Shown here in pieces: positions 23,145 to 33,739 of a stretch of 64,000 nucleotides of DNA. The notes below the pieces were generated by a model. The model worked only from the letters and a program-made list of their open reading frames with translations, was not told where the DNA came from and made no database searches. Origin of the DNA: a virus (lineage: Duplodnaviria; Caudoviricetes); IMG/VR virus record IMGVR_UViG_3300010262_000138, positions 1-64,000 of that record; one strand, 5' to 3'. A program made the translations under genes and the position numbers. The stretch's first letter is position 1; each line of letters begins with the position of its first letter.

Positions 23145-23756
23145 TCAGCGCAATATTCTATCACTGTCTTTTGAATACTTTACATGGATTCTATCTACAT
23201 TCTTTGTGTTGATGACTGCTTGCCATGTAGGATCGTCTGCCATATCGAAATCCCGACAAACTGTTCCATGATTCATCATTACAACATCTGACAGGACCAG
23301 CCATGTATCTCCCTCATCCGATGTGTAGTATTTGAAGTAAACTCCAGAATAAGAAATCCCATCATTTAAGAATACGTCAATATAGCACCCTTTATCTTTG
23401 TCGCTGATACCATCCCAAACTCCCCGATCCAGTGTACGATGAAAAATTGGTTCTATAATATGGGTCCCAATATACTGATTAGTTTCAATTAACCCGAAAA
23501 TCGTTCCGCATACAGCACTAAAAATAATAACGGATGCGTCGCCTGAATCTTTCCATCCTAATATGTGGAAGATTTGACGCCCCAGTATCGATATAATAAA
23601 GCTATAAAGCATCGAATTAACGGAAAAGAATTTTTCAACAGGGCATTTCTTTTGTGCGAGAAAACAGTACGTGCCAGAGAAAACCATAAATGGGATAAAA
23701 AACATTGCCAAGTCAGGGATTAAGTGCGTAAAAGATTCAGCAGTTATAATGTCCAT
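23145..23756 (-). CDS. DUF6338-like membrane protein (moron)
   Basis: Three TM segments, then VWD...G.Y..V.L.DG..Y.G; paralog of 33857-34447. Confidence 0.6.
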   Translation of the reverse strand: MDIITAESFTHLIPDLAMFFIPFMVFSGTYCFLAQKKCPVEKFFSVNSMLYSFIISILGRQIFHILGWKDSGDASVIIFSAVCGTIFGLIETNQYIGTHIIEPIFHRTLDRGVWDGISDKDKGCYIDVFLNDGISYSGVYFKYYTSDEGDTWLVLSDVVMMNHGTVCRDFDMADDPTWQAVINTKNVDRIHVKYSKDSDRILR

Positions 23757-24070
23757 TTAACACCTCGTATCTTTTTAGGTTTTGGAAGCTGTGGGCGTGG
23801 ATATGCTCCGCTTACACCGCATTTTATCTCGTCAATTGCCTGTATAGCTCTAATTCTATATCTGGTACGCGACGCCATATGCGATAAACTTATGCGTTTT
23901 GAATAGCGATTAGAAGTAAGAGACGCCACAAGGTAGTTCCGTAAAACTTCAAGTTCGTCTTGCTTTAAAGTCTCAATTAGATACGTACAGTTAAATCCTC
24001 TATCAATCTTTCTTACAATTGACAAAAAAAGTCGGTCTGACCTCGTTCTGGCATATGCAGATCTTCTCAC
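23744..24070 (-). CDS. Basic hypothetical protein (moron)
   Basis: RBS AGGAGG plus GTG; Pro/Lys-rich tail overlapping the DUF6338-like gene. Confidence 0.5.
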   Translation of the reverse strand: MRRSAYARTRSDRLFLSIVRKIDRGFNCTYLIETLKQDELEVLRNYLVASLTSNRYSKRISLSHMASRTRYRIRAIQAIDEIKCGVSGAYPRPQLPKPKKIRGVKWTL

Positions 24071-24200
24071 TTCGCACCCCTCCTATAATATTTGAGTTTA
24101 TTATAGCATAGGGATTTGAAATACAAAATGCAAAACACAATTTAAGTGAATTGGTGTGCATTACGCTCACTCCATTCACTTTTATTATAACCCTAAGCTC

Positions 24201-24521
24201 TCAGCGATGAGAATGTGTAAGCAGTTCGCTCAAAATCGCATAAATGTACGAAGGGCCGCGAACTATCCCGCTGATTTGTCCAGGACCCGGTATCGGCATT
24301 TGCTGAAATGCCTTTTCGAATTCGTTCCTTGTTAAACGATATGAGGTGCGGCTGACGTGGACAACATCATTTTCTACCCGATATGTGAAAGGAAGTCCCG
24401 TAATGGTATGAAAGACTTGACCCTCGTTATTCTTTATTAGCTCCCAAAGCAGATGAAAATTCACAGCACACACCTCACAAATATTAAAAAATAGAAGCCG
24501 TAAACCGTTCTCCGCCAACAT
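24201..24521 (-). CDS. Small conserved-looking hypothetical protein (true start likely internal GTG near 24464)
   Basis: GQVFHTITGLPFTY...GPSYIYAIL motif. Confidence 0.6.
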   Translation of the reverse strand: MLAENGLRLLFFNICEVCAVNFHLLWELIKNNEGQVFHTITGLPFTYRVENDVVHVSRTSYRLTRNEFEKAFQQMPIPGPGQISGIVRGPSYIYAILSELLTHSHR

Positions 24522-25083
24522 CTCTACGCTTATGCGACAAATCAGTAACAGCAGCCTTCATATGTTTTACGAGTTCGTTATGGTCTTTCCATGGCATTGT
24601 AGAATACAGATGCTTTTGCAAAACATCCTCACACTCAAAGTCTGGGGCGGCCGCAAAAACAGCGAATCCAGAGATATCCTGATTTATTCTAACAGGCTTA
24701 TATGCGGTGATTTCAGGGACAGGGGCGCCGGTATAACGATAACCATATGCACAAAAGTTTCCCTTATTATCTCTGCCGCCAAGCAGATACTGCCGGCTCG
24801 TCAACTTTGAGTAATTCTTTTCAAAATACCTCATAATCTCTTTATGGACAATAGCCATCGTGAGAACGCTATGGTCTGGACGTTGACCAAGAACACTCCA
24901 CAATCCCTCGTTAGAAAACTTTCCGGTTGTTCCCATAATTATATTGGAATTGATTTTTAATACCTTGCAGGTTGAGTCAGAGAACACCTTATCGGGCTCT
25001 CCCTCTTTATCAAATCCAACAACTCTACCGTCCGATACAAACGTACAAAAATTAACTCCGCACACCCCAATTACAACGCTCAT
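24484..25083 (-). CDS. Ntn-hydrolase / proteasome-beta-like protein (moron)
   Basis: RBS then MSVVIG...VSDGR...K...I...IIMG.TG and a C-terminal VGG; N-terminal Ser as candidate nucleophile. Confidence 0.55.
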   Translation of the reverse strand: MSVVIGVCGVNFCTFVSDGRVVGFDKEGEPDKVFSDSTCKVLKINSNIIMGTTGKFSNEGLWSVLGQRPDHSVLTMAIVHKEIMRYFEKNYSKLTSRQYLLGGRDNKGNFCAYGYRYTGAPVPEITAYKPVRINQDISGFAVFAAAPDFECEDVLQKHLYSTMPWKDHNELVKHMKAAVTDLSHKRRDVGGERFTASIF

Positions 25084-25499
25084 TCTACTCACCCTTTCAG
25101 TGAGTATAATACCACTGTCAGGGCATACGATCAAGCCTTTGGATGTGATGATTCCGGGCTTTAGCTCTATGTTCATACAGTACCTTTCTGCTAAAAGACG
25201 GACGGGATTTACCCGTCCGTCGTATTATTTGTTAAATGCCGACATAACGTTGACAGATTAAGAATTTACTCGTGACTTGTATCATTTTTACAACTTATTG
25301 CATTATATCTCGTTTCAAATTCTTGTGCTTGTGACTTATTATTCTTGATAGGAACATATTTTGAAAGAAGGTATTGCAAATAACACCTCTGTACAATATT
25401 ATCATTCATGGCGTTCATTTCTTACACTCCCTTCACGCATATAATGTGAGTAGAAATACTGAGGATTATACGACCTATATCGTGTTAGTTATACAAATA

Positions 25500-25664: not shown

Positions 25665-28600
25665 TTATATGATCCCTTTCTTCGCGTTTCCACGAATCCC
25701 TCTGTTGGATGCGGTCTTATTAAGCTGTTCAACAACCCTGTCTGCAATCTTTCTGATAGAGGGCACTACACTTTCATCGAGAGAACCCGCTACCTGAATA
25801 TTGATTAGACCGCCATCAATCGAGAGCCCAGTAGACAGAGATCCGATTCCGTTGATGCCCCTAACCGAATTGAGTTTAGGGAGCAGGGAAGACACAACGG
25901 GAAGATTTTCTACAAAATCCAGCAGCTTACGTCCTTGCATAGACGAAAGCACAACTTCCGATCTTGTAGAGCTGCCATGAAGCATCGCGGGGCCGGTAGA
26001 ACTTACAACGCCTCCCGAAGCAAACCCAGGCAAGCTTCTCGCCCCGGAAGAAAATCCCGGATATGTTCTTGGGTCTGTAATATGAACAGTACTATAATCG
26101 TAGCCGCTCCCGGATAAATCCTTATACTTTACATTGTTGTATTTGCTGTAATCATTAACGCGGTCGATAGCATCAGCCGCTTCTTCGGCCTTGCGGATAG
26201 TAGTATCAAGAGAGTCATTTACTCTGTTTACCCCATCCTCAACCCTTTGCGTCGCGCCGGCTACTGAATCCATAGCAACGGATACATTCCCGGTTTCAGC
26301 GCACATATCGCAAGTAGCCGCAATCAGGTATTGGAGGATATCATAGACTGTTTTTTCTCCAAATCCGAAGTTTTCCAATGACTTATAAGCGTCATTCCAG
26401 ACGTGGATTACTTCGTCCCTTGTCATTCCTCCATATGTCGTGCAGAATTCAATCAGGCTGTTGTAATATTCTGACGACCGTTCCTGAATCATGTCGATTG
26501 CTTCAATACGCATCGAACCTTCTTGGTCTAGAGCTTCTTCAATCAGCCTGATTTTTCTTTCGTAGTATTCTTCGTCAGCCTTGTATTCTTCTTCAAGATT
26601 GTCAAGCTTTTCTTTATGAATCAGCTCATAACGCTCATACTCATCGTCCAGAAGGTCTGTAGCCTGATCGTATGCGCGGTCTGACTGATAATCTTCCAGA
26701 TCAGAATATTTGCCTGCAAGTTGCTCCTGAAGCTCAAGACGCTTCTTCATCGCGTCGGAGGAATCGTCGTTTTGAATCTCTAAGAGTTTGCTTTCAATAT
26801 CAGCAATCTCTTTATTCTTTTCCGCAAGCTGCTTTTGATAGTCGTTTTCGTCCTTATCGCGTTCCAGCGCCTTTTTGCGAGCGTCAATTAAACGCTTATA
26901 GGCGTCGATTTGATCCTCAATCGCATCTTTTTCTTCGTCATATTGCTTTTTGATACGGTCAAGATCGTCTTGGTAAGCAGACTTTTTTGCTTCCAGACGA
27001 TGTTTGATCATCTTAACGGTAACGTCAATAAGATCTTCAATAGCACTTTGTGCGTCCTTAGCCGCTTCTTTCATCTTTTTAGCGGCTTCTTCCGCAGCCT
27101 TTGCGGCAGACTCGGCGGCTTTCCCGCCGTCCATTACTGAAAGGGAATAAGTCCCGACAGAGGCACGCGCGAGGTCAAATAACTTCCTCTGCTTCTCTAC
27201 ATGAGCATTGAGCTTTTCAACTGCGGCATCGAATTCGCTACCTTTATCTGATACAGCCGCATTAGCAATAGCCTGTTTCCATGAAGCATCCGCGTCAGCA
27301 AGACGTGCACTGGCGAGATCGTAAGTTGCATCCTTCAAGTAGCTTGCGGCTTTTTCTTGATCCTCAAACGTCTTGAGAAGATTAGTAGCCTCCTGCAGAT
27401 AAGCGGCTTCAGCATCATCAATTCTTGCATAAGCAAGATCGATCATGGCGTTTTTGTTTAGTACAAGCTGACCGTTTTCCGTCTGTAAACACGCGAGGTA
27501 TTCCGGCTCTAACTCTAAGAGAGATTGTAGTGTGTCGAGGGTTAGATAACCCTTGGTGTTATACTCTTCAACGGCTCCAGAAAGGGAGGTATAGGCAGAC
27601 TGTAGGGAGTCAATTGCGTCATTGGCGTCTTTAATAGAAAGAGCGGCAGCTTGTGCGGCGACAGAAACATCACTAAACGCCTCAGAAGAAACACTATCAC
27701 CAGAACCCACCACTTCTAAAAATCGATCAAGAGCATCGTTTGCGAAATCAACCATCTCTACGTCTGATTGCGTGACCGGTTCTATTTCTGCAAGTTGGCG
27801 ATACCAATTTGCGACTACGGGGAGGCTGGCCGCAAGATTATCATACTCTGACTTTTCAGCATTAGTAAGTTTAATGCCTTCTTCCTGTTTTTGCAGAAGT
27901 TTATCATATCTATCTACACCTAGATCAAAATATTCGACGGCCGAAACAGGCGATGAATACCCTTGCAGCTCTGCAAAGAAACCCTGTTTAAATCCCTTTG
28001 CTGTCATAACCCGATTGTTAATACCACTACGCAGATATCTGGTATTATCGAGCCCTTGAATATTGTCCTGCATTTGAGCGTAAAGATTACGCGCGGCGCC
28101 GTATTGTTCTTGTGAGGCTGTTACTTTTTCAGCCTTTAACAAGTTAATTCTACGCTCTAATGCATCGTTAGATTTCTGAAGATCAGAAAGTTCTTTTTCT
28201 TCTACAAGGGATGGCAACGTCCCAAGAGACTGAATCTCCTTAATTCTGTCCTCATTTATTTTAATCTCATCGCTAACCCGTTTAATTTCAGATGCTAAAG
28301 ATTCTACTTGTTCCTTTGACTTCGCATAAGACTCAAACGCTTCTTCTGCGCTCTGTGAAAAATAGTTAAACCCTTTAATTGCGAGGTTTAAAGCCCCAAT
28401 AACAATAGCAACCTTTGAAAGAGCCGATAAGGCAGAGAATGCCTTACCAAGAGAACCAACAGCTCCTTTCAGACCTTTAGTGGCATAACCCTCCGCAATA
28501 ATTGCTGCAGCGTTTTTCTTCGCGGCTGAAGTATTTAGAATTTTCTCAGCCGTATTGGCCCTTTCTGCATCAGATAGCCCTGTATTCGCTAATGCTTCCT

Positions 28601-28762
28601 CTATTTTTGCGCGAGTTAGAGCCTTGGAAGATAACATCTGTTGGTTGCTAGCCATTACATTGACGATTTGTTCTTTTGATAGTCCCGCTAAAGCGGTTTG
28701 CAAAAGCGCGATATCATCGCACCCGGCGCCTACAATACTAAAAAATTGTTTAATTGCCAAAT
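25665..28762 (-). CDS. Tape measure protein, exon 2 (C-terminal ~1030 aa)
   Basis: Ala/Glu/Lys-rich coiled coils and a GFASGG...AMLHG...E.VL C-terminus; no RBS and an in-frame stop 6 codons upstream of the TTG. Confidence 0.85.
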
Positions 28763-28782
28763 CTTTCTGTGTGTGTTAAAAT
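28754..28782 (+). promoter_or_regulatory. sigma-A promoter driving the antisense cargo, straddling the proposed 3' splice site
   Basis: TTGCCA(28754-59)-N17-TAAAAT(28777-82) with extended -10 TG; first cargo ATG at 28808. Confidence 0.65.
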
Positions 28783-28807
28783 AACAGTATACTAAACGAA
28801 TGGGGGA

Positions 28808-29047
28808 ATGGATTCAATGGAATGTCTGCTTGTTGCAATCACTATTGTTTTTGTTTTGATAGTTATAATGGGTCTTATTGTATCTGTGTTGTCCGAATTA
28901 GGATTTACCGACTTTCCGCCTCTGCTCATCCTTGCACTTGCCATAATAATATTTGTTGTCTGGTTTTGTAATAGTATTAAAAAAGATATAGAGAATAGAG
29001 AGAAAATAAAAAAAGAGATAGCGGAAAGAAATATGAAACGAAAATAA
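28808..29047 (+). CDS. Intron cargo: two-TM small membrane protein
   Basis: Two hydrophobic helices and a basic tail; directly after the promoter. Confidence 0.65.
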   Translation: MDSMECLLVAITIVFVLIVIMGLIVSVLSELGFTDFPPLLILALAIIIFVVWFCNSIKKDIENREKIKKEIAERNMKRK

Positions 29048-29137
29048 CTAATATCCGGATAACATAACACTCCTAATAGTGTGTAATACACTGTATAGAT
29101 TTAGTTTTTAAATAACGTATTTGAAAGGAAGGTAACG

Positions 29138-29896
29138 ATGAAGTTTTATAGAATAGTAAGTTTGGTTGCAATCTCGCTTATTATCGCATCGTGCAGTAAT
29201 GAATCTCTGAACGAATCATCTTCTACATCGTCCAGTGTAAACACAATGGTCTTACAAAATAACTCTGACTCAACAGAATTGTCCGCTGCTTCTCAGATCA
29301 ATGAAGCTTTCAGCGATAATAGTGCCGTAGAACCCGGCTTAAATAGTAATGTCGCTACTTCCTCAGAACACACCCCTGCCGAAGGTCCAACATCGTCAAA
29401 AATTGAGATTAGCGAGAGCAATATCGTAGAATCTCCCCATAAAGCGAAACCTGAAAAGACAGAAAAGATAGAAAAGCACTATTTCTGTTATTGTGACACA
29501 GAAACTATAGTTGAAATTCCGGACATCAAAAAGCCGTTCCCGGTTAATCAGGTTACAGGGTTTGAATTTGATGGATATTTCTGCGATAGTGAAAGCGTAA
29601 AGTCATCGGGGAATGAGAGAAGGTATTTCCATCATATCGAAGATGAACTCAACTTGGTTTTTGCCGCATTTGATGAATACGATAAAGTAGATCCAAGCAT
29701 TCAAGAACTGTTAGATAAACGTTGTAAATCCAATGTTCTTTATGTTGTATGGAACATATGGGATTCGAATATCGATATAATGACTCCGGCAAAAGGGGAG
29801 GGTTATACGATGAGAGATGTCCCGGTAGGCGCAAAAGGCGTCACTCTTTACGATATGGAAGGGAATATACTCGACCCACATGATGATATATTCTGA
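29138..29896 (+). CDS. Intron cargo: lipoprotein (Ser-rich linker plus C-terminal domain)
   Basis: RBS aaggaagg; lipobox LIIAS-C; Ser/Asn/Glu-rich spacer. Confidence 0.75.
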   Translation: MKFYRIVSLVAISLIIASCSNESLNESSSTSSSVNTMVLQNNSDSTELSAASQINEAFSDNSAVEPGLNSNVATSSEHTPAEGPTSSKIEISESNIVESPHKAKPEKTEKIEKHYFCYCDTETIVEIPDIKKPFPVNQVTGFEFDGYFCDSESVKSSGNERRYFHHIEDELNLVFAAFDEYDKVDPSIQELLDKRCKSNVLYVVWNIWDSNIDIMTPAKGEGYTMRDVPVGAKGVTLYDMEGNILDPHDDIF

Positions 29897-30507
29897 TGGG
29901 GAGCGAAACAAATATGATTGAATTATCCACAAATAATTCGCTAAGAGGTCATTTATCACCACATACTAAGACAAGACCTATCATGAATGGATTTTGCCAA
30001 TCAGGAAAAAGATATCTCATTTTTCACAAAATCTGCCGTTTGCGTAATCGCTTGATATCATTGGTAGTTACTAGGTTAATATACTGCGAAAATAAGCTAT
30101 GCGACGATGGGGATTTTACAATAACAGATCTCAAAAAGGATATTCAATATCTTATTTCAAAAGCGGAAAAATATGAACCATGTGTTTACCCTTGCCGGCC
30201 AATGGTGAAAGAGTTATTAGAAATACCGCAAGATCAACTTTTTAATGGTAATACCATTTCCTTTTCAACACCATATTTATTACGTGCCCAAACCTCACAA
30301 TATTACGGGTACGGAGATACTTCAAGATTTGCTATAATTGGAATAACTGTTGATAATTATGAATCAGAAGTATATTGTAACTGCGATCCAGAAAACCCTG
30401 ACATAGAAATTTTTTATGAAAAAGATGGGAATAAAACGGTTAATTTAGACTTTGTTGGCCCATGTTATATTACATATATGCTGAGAGCGCTTAATGATCC
30501 TATCTAA
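29896..30507 (+). CDS. Intron cargo: hypothetical protein (start uncertain)
   Basis: ATG overlaps the lipoprotein stop (TGATG); AT-rich. Confidence 0.5.
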   Translation: MGSETNMIELSTNNSLRGHLSPHTKTRPIMNGFCQSGKRYLIFHKICRLRNRLISLVVTRLIYCENKLCDDGDFTITDLKKDIQYLISKAEKYEPCVYPCRPMVKELLEIPQDQLFNGNTISFSTPYLLRAQTSQYYGYGDTSRFAIIGITVDNYESEVYCNCDPENPDIEIFYEKDGNKTVNLDFVGPCYITYMLRALNDPI

Positions 30508-30594
30508 TAAAAATAGGATTAGTGGGATGACTTTATGAGACAGGTTGAACTTTTGTGAACCAATATATTTATTAACCAGAACGGAGGTATTACT

Positions 30595-30801
30595 ATGGCA
30601 TTATTGGTAGCACTGGGAGTGATCGGGATCTTTGCGATGGCGCTCTACATCGGGGCGGCGGGGCTCTTTGGGCCGGTTATAGGCATTATCATCGTAATAG
30701 CGGGCGTTGTGTGGGCCTGTAAAGAAACGCCGGAGCAGAAGATGGTCCGGGAGGCAATCGAACGGAGCAACGAGAAGCTTTATGGGAGGAAGCACCCGTA
30801 A
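30595..30801 (+). CDS. Intron cargo: two-TM small membrane protein
   Basis: RBS GGAGG; two hydrophobic helices. Confidence 0.7.
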   Translation: MALLVALGVIGIFAMALYIGAAGLFGPVIGIIIVIAGVVWACKETPEQKMVREAIERSNEKLYGRKHP

Positions 30802-30854
30802 ATGATAATCGGAGGGTATATCACTCCGTAATTAACCAATATTTGATACTCACA

Positions 30855-31121
30855 TTATTCATCGGTAAGTGTAATTCCGATTGGTTTGCACCCTGTTAAA
30901 CGCAAAAAGACATACTCCATATCGTCCACATAAACTTCTGGTGTCTCATTTCCGTTTAAGTCCCATGGGAATATTGGATCTGGGATAGACAGTCCCAATT
31001 TTTTGGCAATTCTTTTAACATAAAGACGATCTAATGTAACAATTGGAATATTTGTTTTAGCAGAAAGTTTAATTAACGAATAGGTTTTTCCGTTACCACG
31101 AGGTCCATAAAACAGTTTCAT
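30855..31121 (-). CDS. Intron cargo: minimal P-loop protein
   Basis: RBS GGAGG; Walker A GPRGNGKT and Walker B-like VYVDD in 88 aa. Confidence 0.7.
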   Translation of the reverse strand: MKLFYGPRGNGKTYSLIKLSAKTNIPIVTLDRLYVKRIAKKLGLSIPDPIFPWDLNGNETPEVYVDDMEYVFLRLTGCKPIGITLTDE

Positions 31122-31163
31122 AATTTACCTCCAAAAAAAATAGGATAGAAAGGAATTTTTAAA

Positions 31164-31475
31164 ATGACTATCAATCATGTGATAGCAATTAAGTTAGAGC
31201 ATCTTGTTTGTGAGATTTGTGAGTGTGAAAGATTCGGTATTTGTGGGATTGCTAGCGCATCAAATTTTGAAGTGCGTCCAATCGAGGCGGCAATACTGTG
31301 TTTTGCTAAATTATCGCAATATCCACATAAAAGCAAAGAATGTACCGTCAAAGCAGAAAACTTTTTAGACAAATGGCACACTATATTTGAATACCCAAAA
31401 GAAAACCCAAGACATACGTGCGAAGAATACCTGTCTGAATTAGAACAAGCCGTAAAATGTTTTAACCAACATTAG
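31164..31475 (+). CDS. Intron cargo: hypothetical protein
   Basis: RBS AAGGA; stop ends 2 nt before the repeat arm at 31477. Confidence 0.65.
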   Translation: MTINHVIAIKLEHLVCEICECERFGICGIASASNFEVRPIEAAILCFAKLSQYPHKSKECTVKAENFLDKWHTIFEYPKENPRHTCEEYLSELEQAVKCFNQH

Positions 31476-31499
31476 AACTGTTTTTTTTAGCACACACAG

Positions 31500-31866
31500 C
31501 AACAAACAGGCTCCTATCAGCCTGCTAGATTTCGAGCACCTCTTTACCGTCACACCTGTATCGTCGGCGCGGCGGCGGGGGATTATGCTTCTGTGAACGT
31601 CCTTCATGACATCCGTTCCCCAACGGAGCCAGACTCGTTGCCTCGTCCGTTTTTAACGTGAAGTTTCGCTGCGGATAGACTAACACCTCAAAGTGATAGG
31701 GAAGTGCTTCATCGTCCCCGACTGTGCTCGGTTGTTGCCACCGAGCTAATTTAGTCCCTCTTTATTTATAGACCCGCATCACCATATCTTGTTCAGAGCA
31801 CGATTACGCTCCGTCCTTGATACGGCTAGGCACAATAATACAATCTGTCGCCCGTCATTTCGGGCC
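31500..31866 (-). ncRNA. Non-canonical group I-like ribozyme core
   Basis: P3 GGGACUA(31758-52)/UAAUCCC(31585-79); Q-like UAUCCGCAGCGAA; R-like ACGUUCACAGAAGCAUA; P8; S-like AAAGAGGUGCUCG; P9 hairpin 31505-31526. Confidence 0.7.
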
Positions 31867-33739
31867 AACCCAGGTCTCCAAAAATTTTAGCTGTTCCAAC
31901 GCCAAGACTTGATTTTTTAATCATGTTTATTGCGTTGGAAGCAGTATATATAGATGTACTCAACAAAGCAATTTTCGCTATAAAGCCATCGCCAATCGTT
32001 GATACCTTTAGGATGGCAGTACCAGCGTCAATTAAAAAACCAACAAAATTACTGTTTATGATAACATCAGCAAAATGTTCAAACGCGGCTGCGTTTTCTT
32101 TGAGTTTAAATTCCAAACCTTCTTGGTACGCACTAAACTTTTGCATCGCAGTACCAGCCGAATTTGCCGATACAGCGGAATACTCCATAGCCTTATCAAG
32201 ATTTTCAAACAGAACAAAGACGTTTTCGCGCTGTCTTACTCCGCCCAGTGTGGTCGCAATGGCGCTCTTCTCCGTTTCCTTAAGAGATTCCCACCTTCGA
32301 CCTGTTTCTTGAATAACTTCATTGAAATCTCTGAATTGACCCTCTTGATTTCTTAAGGATATTCCAACGGCATTCAGAGCTTTTTCAAAATCATTGAGCG
32401 GGTCTCCGTCATCATCAATCAACCTACCAAGTTTTACATTACCATATCTTGCAAATATCGTTTTAAACGCTTCACCAACGGTGCTCATATCTCGCTGAGT
32501 AACTTCGCCAACCGCTGCAAGATAGCCAAGCAGATTATCCATATCTACGCCTGCTTGACGTGCGGAGTTAGCAGTACGCGCCATTGCCTCTGCAAGACCT
32601 CCGGCGCTGACGGCGGCTTTAATGTCAATTCCGGTTAGCTTATCTACGATACCCATAGCGTTTGATGCCTCAACCTTATAGCCCTTCATGGCTGACGTAA
32701 GGTATTTTGATGCTTCTGCCGCGTCTACCATGCCAACGATGCTTAATACCATCGAGTCTTTGATTAAAGTGTTAGTATCGTCAAGATTATAGCCCTGTCG
32801 TTGCCACTCTACTGCCGATTCAGCCACAGCGGTTGTGGTGCTCCCCAGCTCGATAGCCATCCTATTGTAAACATCAATGAGCTCTTCTGCGGATTCCTTT
32901 GTGCCTCCTGTTACAATACGCAAATCGACAAGAGCTTTGTCTAACTCAAACGCTGTATCAATTGCCTTATATACCGACGTAACAAAACCAGTTGTTATCG
33001 CGCTTGAAGCTAAATAGACAGAAAATGTCTTAATCTTTTCTCCAAGGTATGTAAAAGTATTTCCGCCCTCGTACCCCGCAGACTTCATTTCTGCCTTAAA
33101 TGATTTAATCAGAACCTGAGCTTCTTTTAGATTACCTAAATCCAGTTCTGAAAAAACTTCATTGATTTTTACCGAATTTAAATCAACCGCAGACGCTTTT
33201 ATCGTTTTTAGGTATTTTTCAAAGTCTGCTTTTGTCTGCTTAATAGAAGCGGAATCGGAACTGCTCTTAAAAGCGTCACGAGCAGCCTGGGTTTCTAACG
33301 CAACTCGCTCTTTTGCAAGTTTTTGTCTTTCTTTTTCAGCAGCTATTGCTTTACTTTGCTGCTCCTGCTCAATTCTCGCATTTTCAAGCATCTGACGCTT
33401 TAATTGATCAGAAAATCTCTTCTGCGCAGCTTCTCGCTTTTGAATATCCCAATCAATTTGGTTTACAACATTTTTGGATGCATTAGTAGAAGCGCCTGAT
33501 CTGACTGATTGATTAGCCGATGATGCTGAAGATGTTAAGCTAATAGAAAGAGTTTTTGATAAATCCTTTATTTGTGCCTTAATTGAACTTGTATCAATGC
33601 TTAATTTTATTTTGGGCGGGTCTCGCCCTATCTCCTGAGCAATTTTTTCAAGTTCTTTGCGTATTAGTTGCCCAGAGGCGCCGGAAGCCGTACTGCCTCC
33701 CTCTACGCCAACTAATACTCTAATATCTGGTTCTGCCAC
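31867..33739 (-). CDS. Tape measure protein, exon 1 (TP901-family core)
   Basis: ELDKAL..LRIVTG, A.ELGSTT..VAES..EW.RQGY, VGEAFKTIFAR motifs; ORF runs on to a stop at 31826 inside the intron. Confidence 0.9.

Follow-up and report, generated by a model that had tools for sequence, protein, structure and literature searches.

A putative group I-type intron with a loop of accessory genes in the tape-measure gene of an SPbeta-like gut phage

In a 64,000-nt stretch of phage DNA (positions 1 to 64,000 of the IMG/VR virus record IMGVR_UViG_3300010262_000138; hereafter the window), which is part of a 112-kb record, the gene encoding the tape-measure protein (TMP) is found in two pieces on the minus strand. 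Comparison with related loci suggests that the two pieces are spliced into one full-length TMP by a group I-type intron of 3110 nt (28758..31867, minus strand), made up of a ribozyme core, a cargo loop and a 3' tail, and we give this reading a probability of about 0.8. The host element is an SPbeta-like prophage of animal-gut bacteria, as assigned from its downstream tail genes (DUF6558 and Prophage_tail/YomG_N) and from the gene order in relatives. Nine related SPbeta-like contigs (L005-L010 and L014-L016) carry the same split, with the same RNA at the same site.

The two pieces of the tape-measure gene

The open reading frames (ORFs) of the N-terminal piece (33739-31826, minus strand, 637 aa) and of the C-terminal piece (28760-25665, minus strand, 1031 aa) are colinear, and the predicted intron between them amounts to 3110 nt. 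A preliminary description of this DNA had reported a TMP in two pieces, the second with a stop codon upstream, and this holds. Both ORFs match phrog_4211, the first at positions 429-946 and the second at positions 2197-2575, and both follow in order along P0001, an uninterrupted homologue of 1672 aa. PF10145 is found in the first ORF. An in-frame UAA at 28778-28776 lies just 5' of the second piece, whose only start is TTG.

Exon 1 (31868..33739, minus strand), containing PF10145 and the phrog_4211 match, would contribute 624 codons, with the 5' splice site after the invariant U31868; the annotated ORF continues for 13 codons into the intron and ends at UAG 31828-31826. Exon 2 (25665..28757, minus strand) would contribute 1030 codons plus the stop, and its first five bases, GCAAU, form P10. 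The predicted junction 31868|28757 reads GAC CUG GGU|GCA AUU AAA, or ..FGDLG|AIKQFF.., in a protein of 1654 aa; the predicted junction peptide is IFGDLGAIKQFF and the predicted spliced sequence is ...GACCUGGGU|GCAAUUAAA.... The spliced frame is open in the window (1654 aa), L006 (2099 aa), L008 (1755 aa) and L010 (1676 aa), and in L009 and L016 it is open to the end of the locus. Moreover, single BLASTP alignments with uninterrupted TMPs cross the junction, with 47% identity over 815 residues between the spliced L008 protein and P0001, and 38% over 699 residues between the spliced window protein and P0007. Multiple alignment places the junction ..KDLG|A(I/M).. without a gap against FKDLF|ATISLL of P0043 and FVGLY|ALLRDL of P0001.

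The preliminary description had joined 31867 or 31870 to 28762. Its open frame stands, but its sites have to be replaced by the comparative junction; they would insert one or two extra residues in the multiple alignment. A 5' splice site at U31867 was rejected because this base is U, C or G among the relatives (C in L007, G in L015 and L016). The G at 28763, which had been taken as the last base of the intron, lies inside the P9.0 pairing, the last base being G28758. P1 had been drawn as a local hairpin; this hairpin has no conserved U.G, and P1 is formed instead with the guide at 31831-31827. Another candidate, a 5' splice site after U31872 with GGGUCU (31775-31770), a pairing predicted by RNAalifold, was discarded, as it leaves no G before an in-frame exon-2 start. 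A further RNAalifold pairing, of the invariant exon bases AGACCUG (31877-31871) with CG-GGUCU (31778-31770), runs into the 5' strand of P3. Neither of its strands varies in seven loci, even at synonymous codon positions; they may be kept as an alternative fold that hides the 5' splice site, or by the constraint of a homing site.

The relatives were found by a protein search restricted to similar length, in which many N-terminal TMP pieces end at one shared place. Contigs of such pieces were fetched (L005, L006, L008, L009, L010, L014, L015 and L016), and L007 was obtained with a DNA pattern. In all nine the N-terminal piece is followed by ~390 nt of shared sequence, and in contigs that extend to the 3' end, a block of unrelated genes fills the space between this sequence and the C-terminal piece. 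The core is 75-79% identical to that of the window in six of seven relatives (L005-L010 group), against 58-67% for the flanking exons; the divergent exception is L016, with a core 62% identical. The proteins of the related phages are only about 60% identical. The comparison of related loci that had been proposed, for a conserved core and covarying stems with variable cargo, was positive in nine contigs, the loop of L016 being empty. DNA runs from pig and bovine gut, belonging to 10 studies, contain the interrupted gene at ~100% identity, and therefore the split arrangement is not an assembly artefact. Further searches gave little: the island and the two core types (the second is described below) had no blastn match in the phage collection, searches with exact or degenerate DNA patterns across contig collections (viral, genome and metagenome) retrieved one further locus only, L007, and a protein-seeded locus search of viral contigs found no close match.

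Proposed ribozyme core, splice sites and pairings of the 3' end

The first ~390 nt of the gap have a GC content of ~0.5, where most of the cargo, apart from one short ORF, has 0.3-0.4, and fold more stably than shuffled sequences (z = -3.4). From seven sequences RNAalifold predicted 105 pairs, 52 of them with compensatory changes. The structure was rebuilt by hand from covariation and then counted on the seven-sequence alignment A4. Including the P3/P7 pseudoknot, it has 100 pairs in 20 helices, with 95.9% of the cells paired, and 54 of the 100 pairs change on both sides; none of 500 shuffles reached any of five measures. In a control in which the 3' partners were slid by 1-3 columns, 37-48% of the cells were paired and 6-18 pairs changed on both sides. 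Helices P1, P2, P4, P6, P7, P8, P9 and P10 covary across the relatives, and the order of the strands is that of group I introns: P1, P2, P3-5', P4, P5, P4', P6, P7-5', P3-3', P8, P7-3', P9.0, P9. The group I topology previously proposed for the DNA after exon 1 is supported by this order and by the covariation of 54 of the 100 pairs.

Both predicted splice sites are addressed by one internal guide sequence (31827..31836, minus strand), which consists of AUUGU (31836-31832, for P10) followed by GCCUA (31831-31827, for P1). In P1 the exon strand UGGGU (31868..31872, minus strand; read 31872-31868) pairs with GCCUA, and the 5' splice site is marked by the wobble U31868.G31831. Four pair states of P1 were seen (UGGGU/GCCUA, UGGCU/GGCUA, UGCGU/GCGCA and UGGGU/GCCCA), with the U.G invariant in 10 of 10 loci. 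P10, contiguous with P1, pairs GCAAU at the start of exon 2 (28757-28753) with AUUGU, and it has 5 bp in each of the eight loci with a 3' end. Its states are GCAAU/AUUGU, ACAAU/AUUGU, GCAAU/AUUGC and CAAUU/AAUUG, position 1 being G.U, A-U or G-C; in L007 the two strands have moved in concert (CAAUU/AAUUG), and two compensating exon indels restore the frame.

Within the intron, the loop of P1 contains a hairpin, GGCCCG-AAAUGA-CGGGC (31850..31866, minus strand), which covaries (GAACCU/AGGUUUC in L015 and L016). It is followed by P2, CCGUAUC/GAUAUGG, with a distal hairpin P2a (31782..31825, minus strand; compensated pairs 5/7 and 3/6). The 5' side of P3 (31752..31777, minus strand) is divided into GCGG (31777-31774) and GGGACUA (31758-31752) by a 15-nt bulge, and its partner is at 31585-31575. 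In these two parts 100% and 96% of the cells pair and the helix is nearly invariant, with one compensating shift in L010 (GCGAGG/CCUCGC). Between P3 and P4 there is an extra hairpin (31726..31747, minus strand), whose loop GGCAACA (31739-31733) pairs with UGUUGCU (31504-31498); in L010 all changed positions of this pairing are compensated (ACAGUA/UACUGU). The P4-P6 domain (31596..31720, minus strand) comprises P4 (CGGG/UCCG, 31720-31717/31675-31672), P5/P5a, P6 and P6a-c. One position of P4 takes G-C, U-A and A-U, and compensated pairs number 2/4 in P4, 4/5 in P6a and 3/4 in P8. An alternative P4, UGCGGG/AUCCGCA, first chosen for its likeness to the P/Q consensus, was rejected because it has a G.A mismatch in four loci and changes in Q are compensated at 31720-31717.

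The catalytic core (31533..31593, minus strand), in which P7 and P8 covary, contains the P7 5' strand CAGAAGCA (31593-31586), the P3 3' strand (31585-31575), P8 (31574-31548), J8/7 GUAAAGAGG (31547-31539) and the P7 3' strand UGCUCG (31538-31533). P7 consists of C-G, a bulged A and G-C, followed by AGCA/UGCU, AGUA/UACU or ACUA/UAGU. We take the bulged A beside a G-C pair to correspond to the guanosine-binding site of known group I introns (Tetrahymena P7); likewise, the stretch GUUCACAGA before P7 equals the classical R element, and UAAAGAG(G/A)U before the P7 3' strand resembles the S element, both as in the Tetrahymena intron. After P7 come the P9.0 strand AAAUC (31532-31528) and the P9 hairpin (31526-31505), together at 31505..31532 (minus strand). 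L016 has two additional hairpins between the P3 3' strand and P8 (L016:3690-3760; CUUGCC..GGCAAG and GCGCC-GAAA-GGCGU), which to our mind recall P7.1/P7.2 of subgroup IA introns; the core of the window has none.

At the other end of the intron, the P9.0 strand GAUUU (28763-28759) and the terminal G28758 (together 28758..28763, minus strand) are conserved in the eight loci with a 3' end, all of which have a G before exon 2. P9.0, AAAUC after P7 with GAUUU before the last G, has 5 bp in six of these loci and 4 bp in two; it is canonical in position and, being nearly invariant, has no covariation. The preliminary description had also noted that an arm after the core (31477..31499, minus strand) can pair with one near exon 2 (28767..28788, minus strand), ~2.7 kb away, and this long-range stem stands. 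The inverted repeat 31502-31482/28784-28764 is 86% complementary, and the duplex of the arms (31499-31477/28788-28767) has a free energy of -16.8 kcal/mol (shuffles, -8.3 +/- 2.4). All eight loci have a comparable stem, with the shared core UGUGUG(U)U/AACACACA and the version UAUGCG/CGCAUA in L008; in the window the cargo loop is closed by UGUGUG/CACACA.

We propose that the late transcript folds the ~390-nt ribozyme directly 3' of exon 1, and that the guide at 31836-31827 would pair with the end of exon 1 in P1 and with the start of exon 2 in P10. The 3' splice site, 2.7 kb off, would be returned to the core by three pairings: the 22-bp stem 31499-31477/28788-28767, the loop pairing 31739-31733/31504-31498 and P9.0 (31532-31528/28763-28759). 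The loop pairing would tie the base of the stem to the extra hairpin, and P9.0 would place G28758 into the guanosine site of P7, so that the three may hold the 3' end on the core irrespective of the content of the loop. Two transesterifications would then join GGU|GCA to give the 1654-aa TMP. In this scheme, catalysis, its autonomy and the timing of cargo expression are what we infer.

The cargo loop and its genes

The cargo loop (28789..31476, ~2.7 kb, both strands) contains six ORFs, five of them antisense to the TMP gene, with weak family matches only. In the order from exon 1 these are a 103-aa ORF without relatives of known function (31164-31475, plus strand), an 88-aa P-loop-like ORF (30855-31121, minus strand), a 68-aa membrane protein (30595-30801, plus strand), a 203-aa ORF without relatives of known function (29896-30507, plus strand), a 252-aa lipoprotein-like ORF (29138-29896, plus strand) and a 79-aa membrane protein (28808-29047, plus strand). 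PADLOC gave weak matches only on these proteins, and ESM Atlas no usable lead for the 203- and 252-aa proteins. The claim that the loop carries several accessory genes instead of a homing endonuclease agrees with these six ORFs and with a domain scan of 26 cargo proteins, in which no LAGLIDADG, GIY-YIG, HNH or His-Cys box homing endonuclease was found. Nor was there any transposase or recombinase domain in the window or in the related cargo scanned, where only weak zinc-ribbon matches appeared.

The cargo is unrelated from locus to locus. Across the eight loci the intron measures 499, 787, 1264, 1592, 1851, 2870, 3110 and 4795 nt, and among the cargo of the relatives are a SocA/Panacea-domain protein (L005) and a DUF2513 protein (L009). 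The shortest intron, that of L016, has no ORF, and its stem closes an AT-rich loop of ~45 nt; the stem, kept even around an ORF-free loop, is thus a part of the intron, and the loop is where insertions go. A loop closed in this way may tolerate any content and serve as a bay for accessory genes, and as most of the cargo lies on the opposite strand, promoters of its own would be possible, leaving the tail gene untranscribed.

Two further observations concern parts of the window cargo. The stretch 30578-30808, with the 68-aa membrane gene, recurs at 88% identity elsewhere in the 112-kb record (G000:C1:79083-79312). In gut DNA runs its depth is 4-5x that of the adjoining sequence and several variants of it occur, a behaviour like that of a small repeated module. 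In run X5 (pig-gut DNA) one contig covers 30767-31488 and then continues into unrelated sequence, departing exactly inside the 5' arm of the long stem, so that in some other phage of the sample this cargo end may adjoin a different core.

A second, compact type of group I-like core was seen after the N-terminal TMP piece in three other loci (L011:7716-8100, L012:7692-8050 and L013:2257-2615), at what seems to be the same TMP protein site (..TDTG). Elements recognised in it by eye are Q AGUCCGCAGC, P6 CUCGUUG/CAACGAG, R AAUGUUCACAGAGCAC, P8 UUGGUC/GAUCAA and P7' GUGCUCG; the expected terminal G in L012 is A in L013. The N-terminal TMP piece of this type (563 aa) is indexed in 133 blocks of the collection. 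These introns also hold kilobases of cargo, including a TmtA-like (Tiamat) protein in L011 (PADLOC, E = 2.5e-43) and AcrVA2-like proteins in L012 and L013, the latter by precomputed annotation only, a call that was not reproduced. Directly after the compact core of L012 and before its first sense-strand cargo gene there is a near-consensus promoter (L012:7990-8020; TTGAAA, 17 nt, TATAAT), which points to independent transcription of the cargo.

The cargo gene nearest to exon 2 encodes, in six related loci, an antisense protein of 152-182 aa with a conserved C-terminal zinc ribbon, CPxCxST..K...RA.....G..S.....F.C..CG (alignment A6). This gene occurs with both intron types (L005:12210-12674, L006:11830-12300, L009:13354-13812, L011:13005-13490, L012:10822-11370 and L013:5383-5901, all on the minus strand) and is absent from the window. 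Outside the intron, four or five minus-strand ORFs (23145-25176) lie in the window between the end of the TMP gene (25665) and the DUF6558 gene (23126-22287), which adjoin in L005 and L006, and this region looks like a second accessory insertion. L010 has a free-standing gene for a 435-aa homing endonuclease of GIY-YIG/NUMOD type (L010:4506-5813), between the tail-tube gene and the genes upstream of TMP.

Alternative explanations and known systems

Several points weigh against a working group I intron in the TMP gene. No spliced RNA or joint was seen, and two RNA runs cover parts of the cargo only. In one of these, the sludge metatranscriptome X19, the contigs fall at 28937-29194, 30510-30660, 31005-31186 and 31202-31345, all within the cargo and at 99-100% identity; as the exons have no RNA cover, the run is uninformative on splicing. 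Such cargo-only RNA would fit expression of the cargo during lysogeny, with DNA carry-over as the alternative. The gut DNA runs with the interrupted form are no proof of an active phage. As to the RNA itself, P3 is the least certain helix, backed by its position and the single shift in L010 and with its 5' strand split by a bulge. Canonical group I introns have a J3/4 of about 3 nt; in the window ~30 nt with a covarying hairpin (31751-31721) are found where this short joint is expected. Searches with Rfam at gathering score and at E <= 10 gave chance snoRNA/miRNA matches only on the window, the 461-nt core and the related compact core; the group I models did not match the 461-nt core at E <= 10, nor any of the nine loci at gathering score. 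The RNA may therefore not be a textbook member of group I, and the naming of helices around the P3-P4 insertion may be wrong. A 2.7-kb loop with antisense genes may also fold too slowly in vivo.

The very large loop, the unusual P3-P4 insertion and the failure of the Rfam models would also suit a ribozyme that is no longer self-sufficient, which either needs a phage or host protein such as a maturase or chaperone, or splices so inefficiently that it throttles the supply of TMP. Many natural group I introns require protein helpers. We consider this unlikely, though worth keeping in mind, given that no intron-encoded protein is conserved in all loci and L016 has none at all. That the intron is dead, with TMP a pseudogene of a defective prophage and the ORFs mere remnants, would agree with the lack of observed splicing and with the rating of the record as 67% complete; yet in every locus the exons read through 1654-2099 codons without a stop, compensatory changes preserve the helices, and the core exceeds its coding flanks in conservation in six of seven relatives. 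Open exons, compensatory changes and core conservation, in phages whose proteins have diverged so far, argue for continued selection, and decay of the intron thus seems very improbable.

Equally small is the chance that two separate TMP polypeptides are made and that the conserved RNA serves processing, termination or regulation of the island. Gene callers do annotate two ORFs in all loci, and TTG or ATG starts are possible for the second. However, the starts called for it vary between loci in both position and codon, and conserved in-frame sequence precedes them, the covariation of P1 and P10 takes in exon bases on both sides, and uninterrupted homologues align without a gap over the junction. 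The least credible explanation is that the 2.7-kb block is a transposon-like element with terminal inverted repeats (CTGTGTGTG...CACACACAG) that landed beside a small intron. An imperfect inverted repeat does lie at both ends, and the X5 contig departs at 31488, inside an arm; but L016, which has no cargo, has the stem as well, its counterpart in L008 covaries as RNA, and no transposase or recombinase domain was seen in any cargo scanned. Splicing of the two pieces by a group I-type intron remains our preferred reading.

A wider proposal, which we put forward only tentatively, is that throughout this clade the TMP intron of SPbeta-like gut phages is a dedicated, swappable bay. The ribozyme and the long-range clamp (22-bp stem, loop-strand pairing and 5-bp P9.0) would be conserved, while the loop would take kilobases of defence, anti-defence, toxin-antitoxin-like and surface-protein genes, self-expressed and often antisense. 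Sloppy deletion of the cargo would destroy an essential virion gene, and the conserved core and 3' stem could act as recombination anchors for exchange of cargo between phages. In the usual view, phage group I introns are small selfish elements with at most one homing endonuclease; here the endonuclease slot appears to hold a changing set of accessory genes, which in relatives includes TmtA (Tiamat-like), Panacea-domain and, by precomputed annotation only, AcrVA2-like proteins. If this is true, the ribozyme is the keeper of an accessory-gene hot spot within an essential structural gene, and the "split" TMP genes reported by gene callers in many gut-phage contigs are accounted for. The natural series of introns from 499 to 4795 nt also offers a way to ask how far from the ribozyme a 3' splice site can sit.

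Group I introns are already known in TMP genes of Bacillus cereus-group prophages, where TMP-IVS1, -IVS2 and -IVS3, of subclasses IA1/IA2, at most in some cases carry a single endonuclease gene (Tourasse and Kolsto 2008, PMC2504315). The likeness extends to their place in the TMP gene of a Firmicute prophage, to a P1/P10 fitted to the site and to the lack, in most of them, of a complete homing endonuclease gene. In contrast to them, the core of the window has no P7.1/P7.2 between P3 and P8 and matches no record of the phage collection by blastn, and its intron holds six unrelated genes, mostly antisense. The IStrons CdISt1 and BcISt1 combine a ribozyme with an IS element and its transposase genes, and move to many sites (Tourasse et al. 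2014, PMC4227781). As in the window, the ribozyme is 5', a kilobase payload precedes the 3' splice site, and the whole unit is spliced out so that insertion into a gene is harmless; the window intron, however, has no transposase and a single fixed gene site, and its payload varies while the ribozyme stays. In the group I intron of phage T4 sunY (nrdD), an ORF likewise lies between the core and the 3' splice site, and the site is returned by pairings near the 3' end. There it is one sense-strand endonuclease gene, whereas the window has an island of several genes, largely antisense. Organellar group I introns can hold extra protein or RNA genes besides endonucleases and reach ~20 kb (cited in the introduction of PMC4227781), but these belong to eukaryotic organelles and are not described as a recurrent, swappable site for accessory genes in a phage structural gene. 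In the literature searched, no phage group I intron was described with cargo that is multi-gene, defence-related or antisense. Thus, while group I introns in TMP genes have been published before, the multi-gene, largely antisense cargo is the new part.

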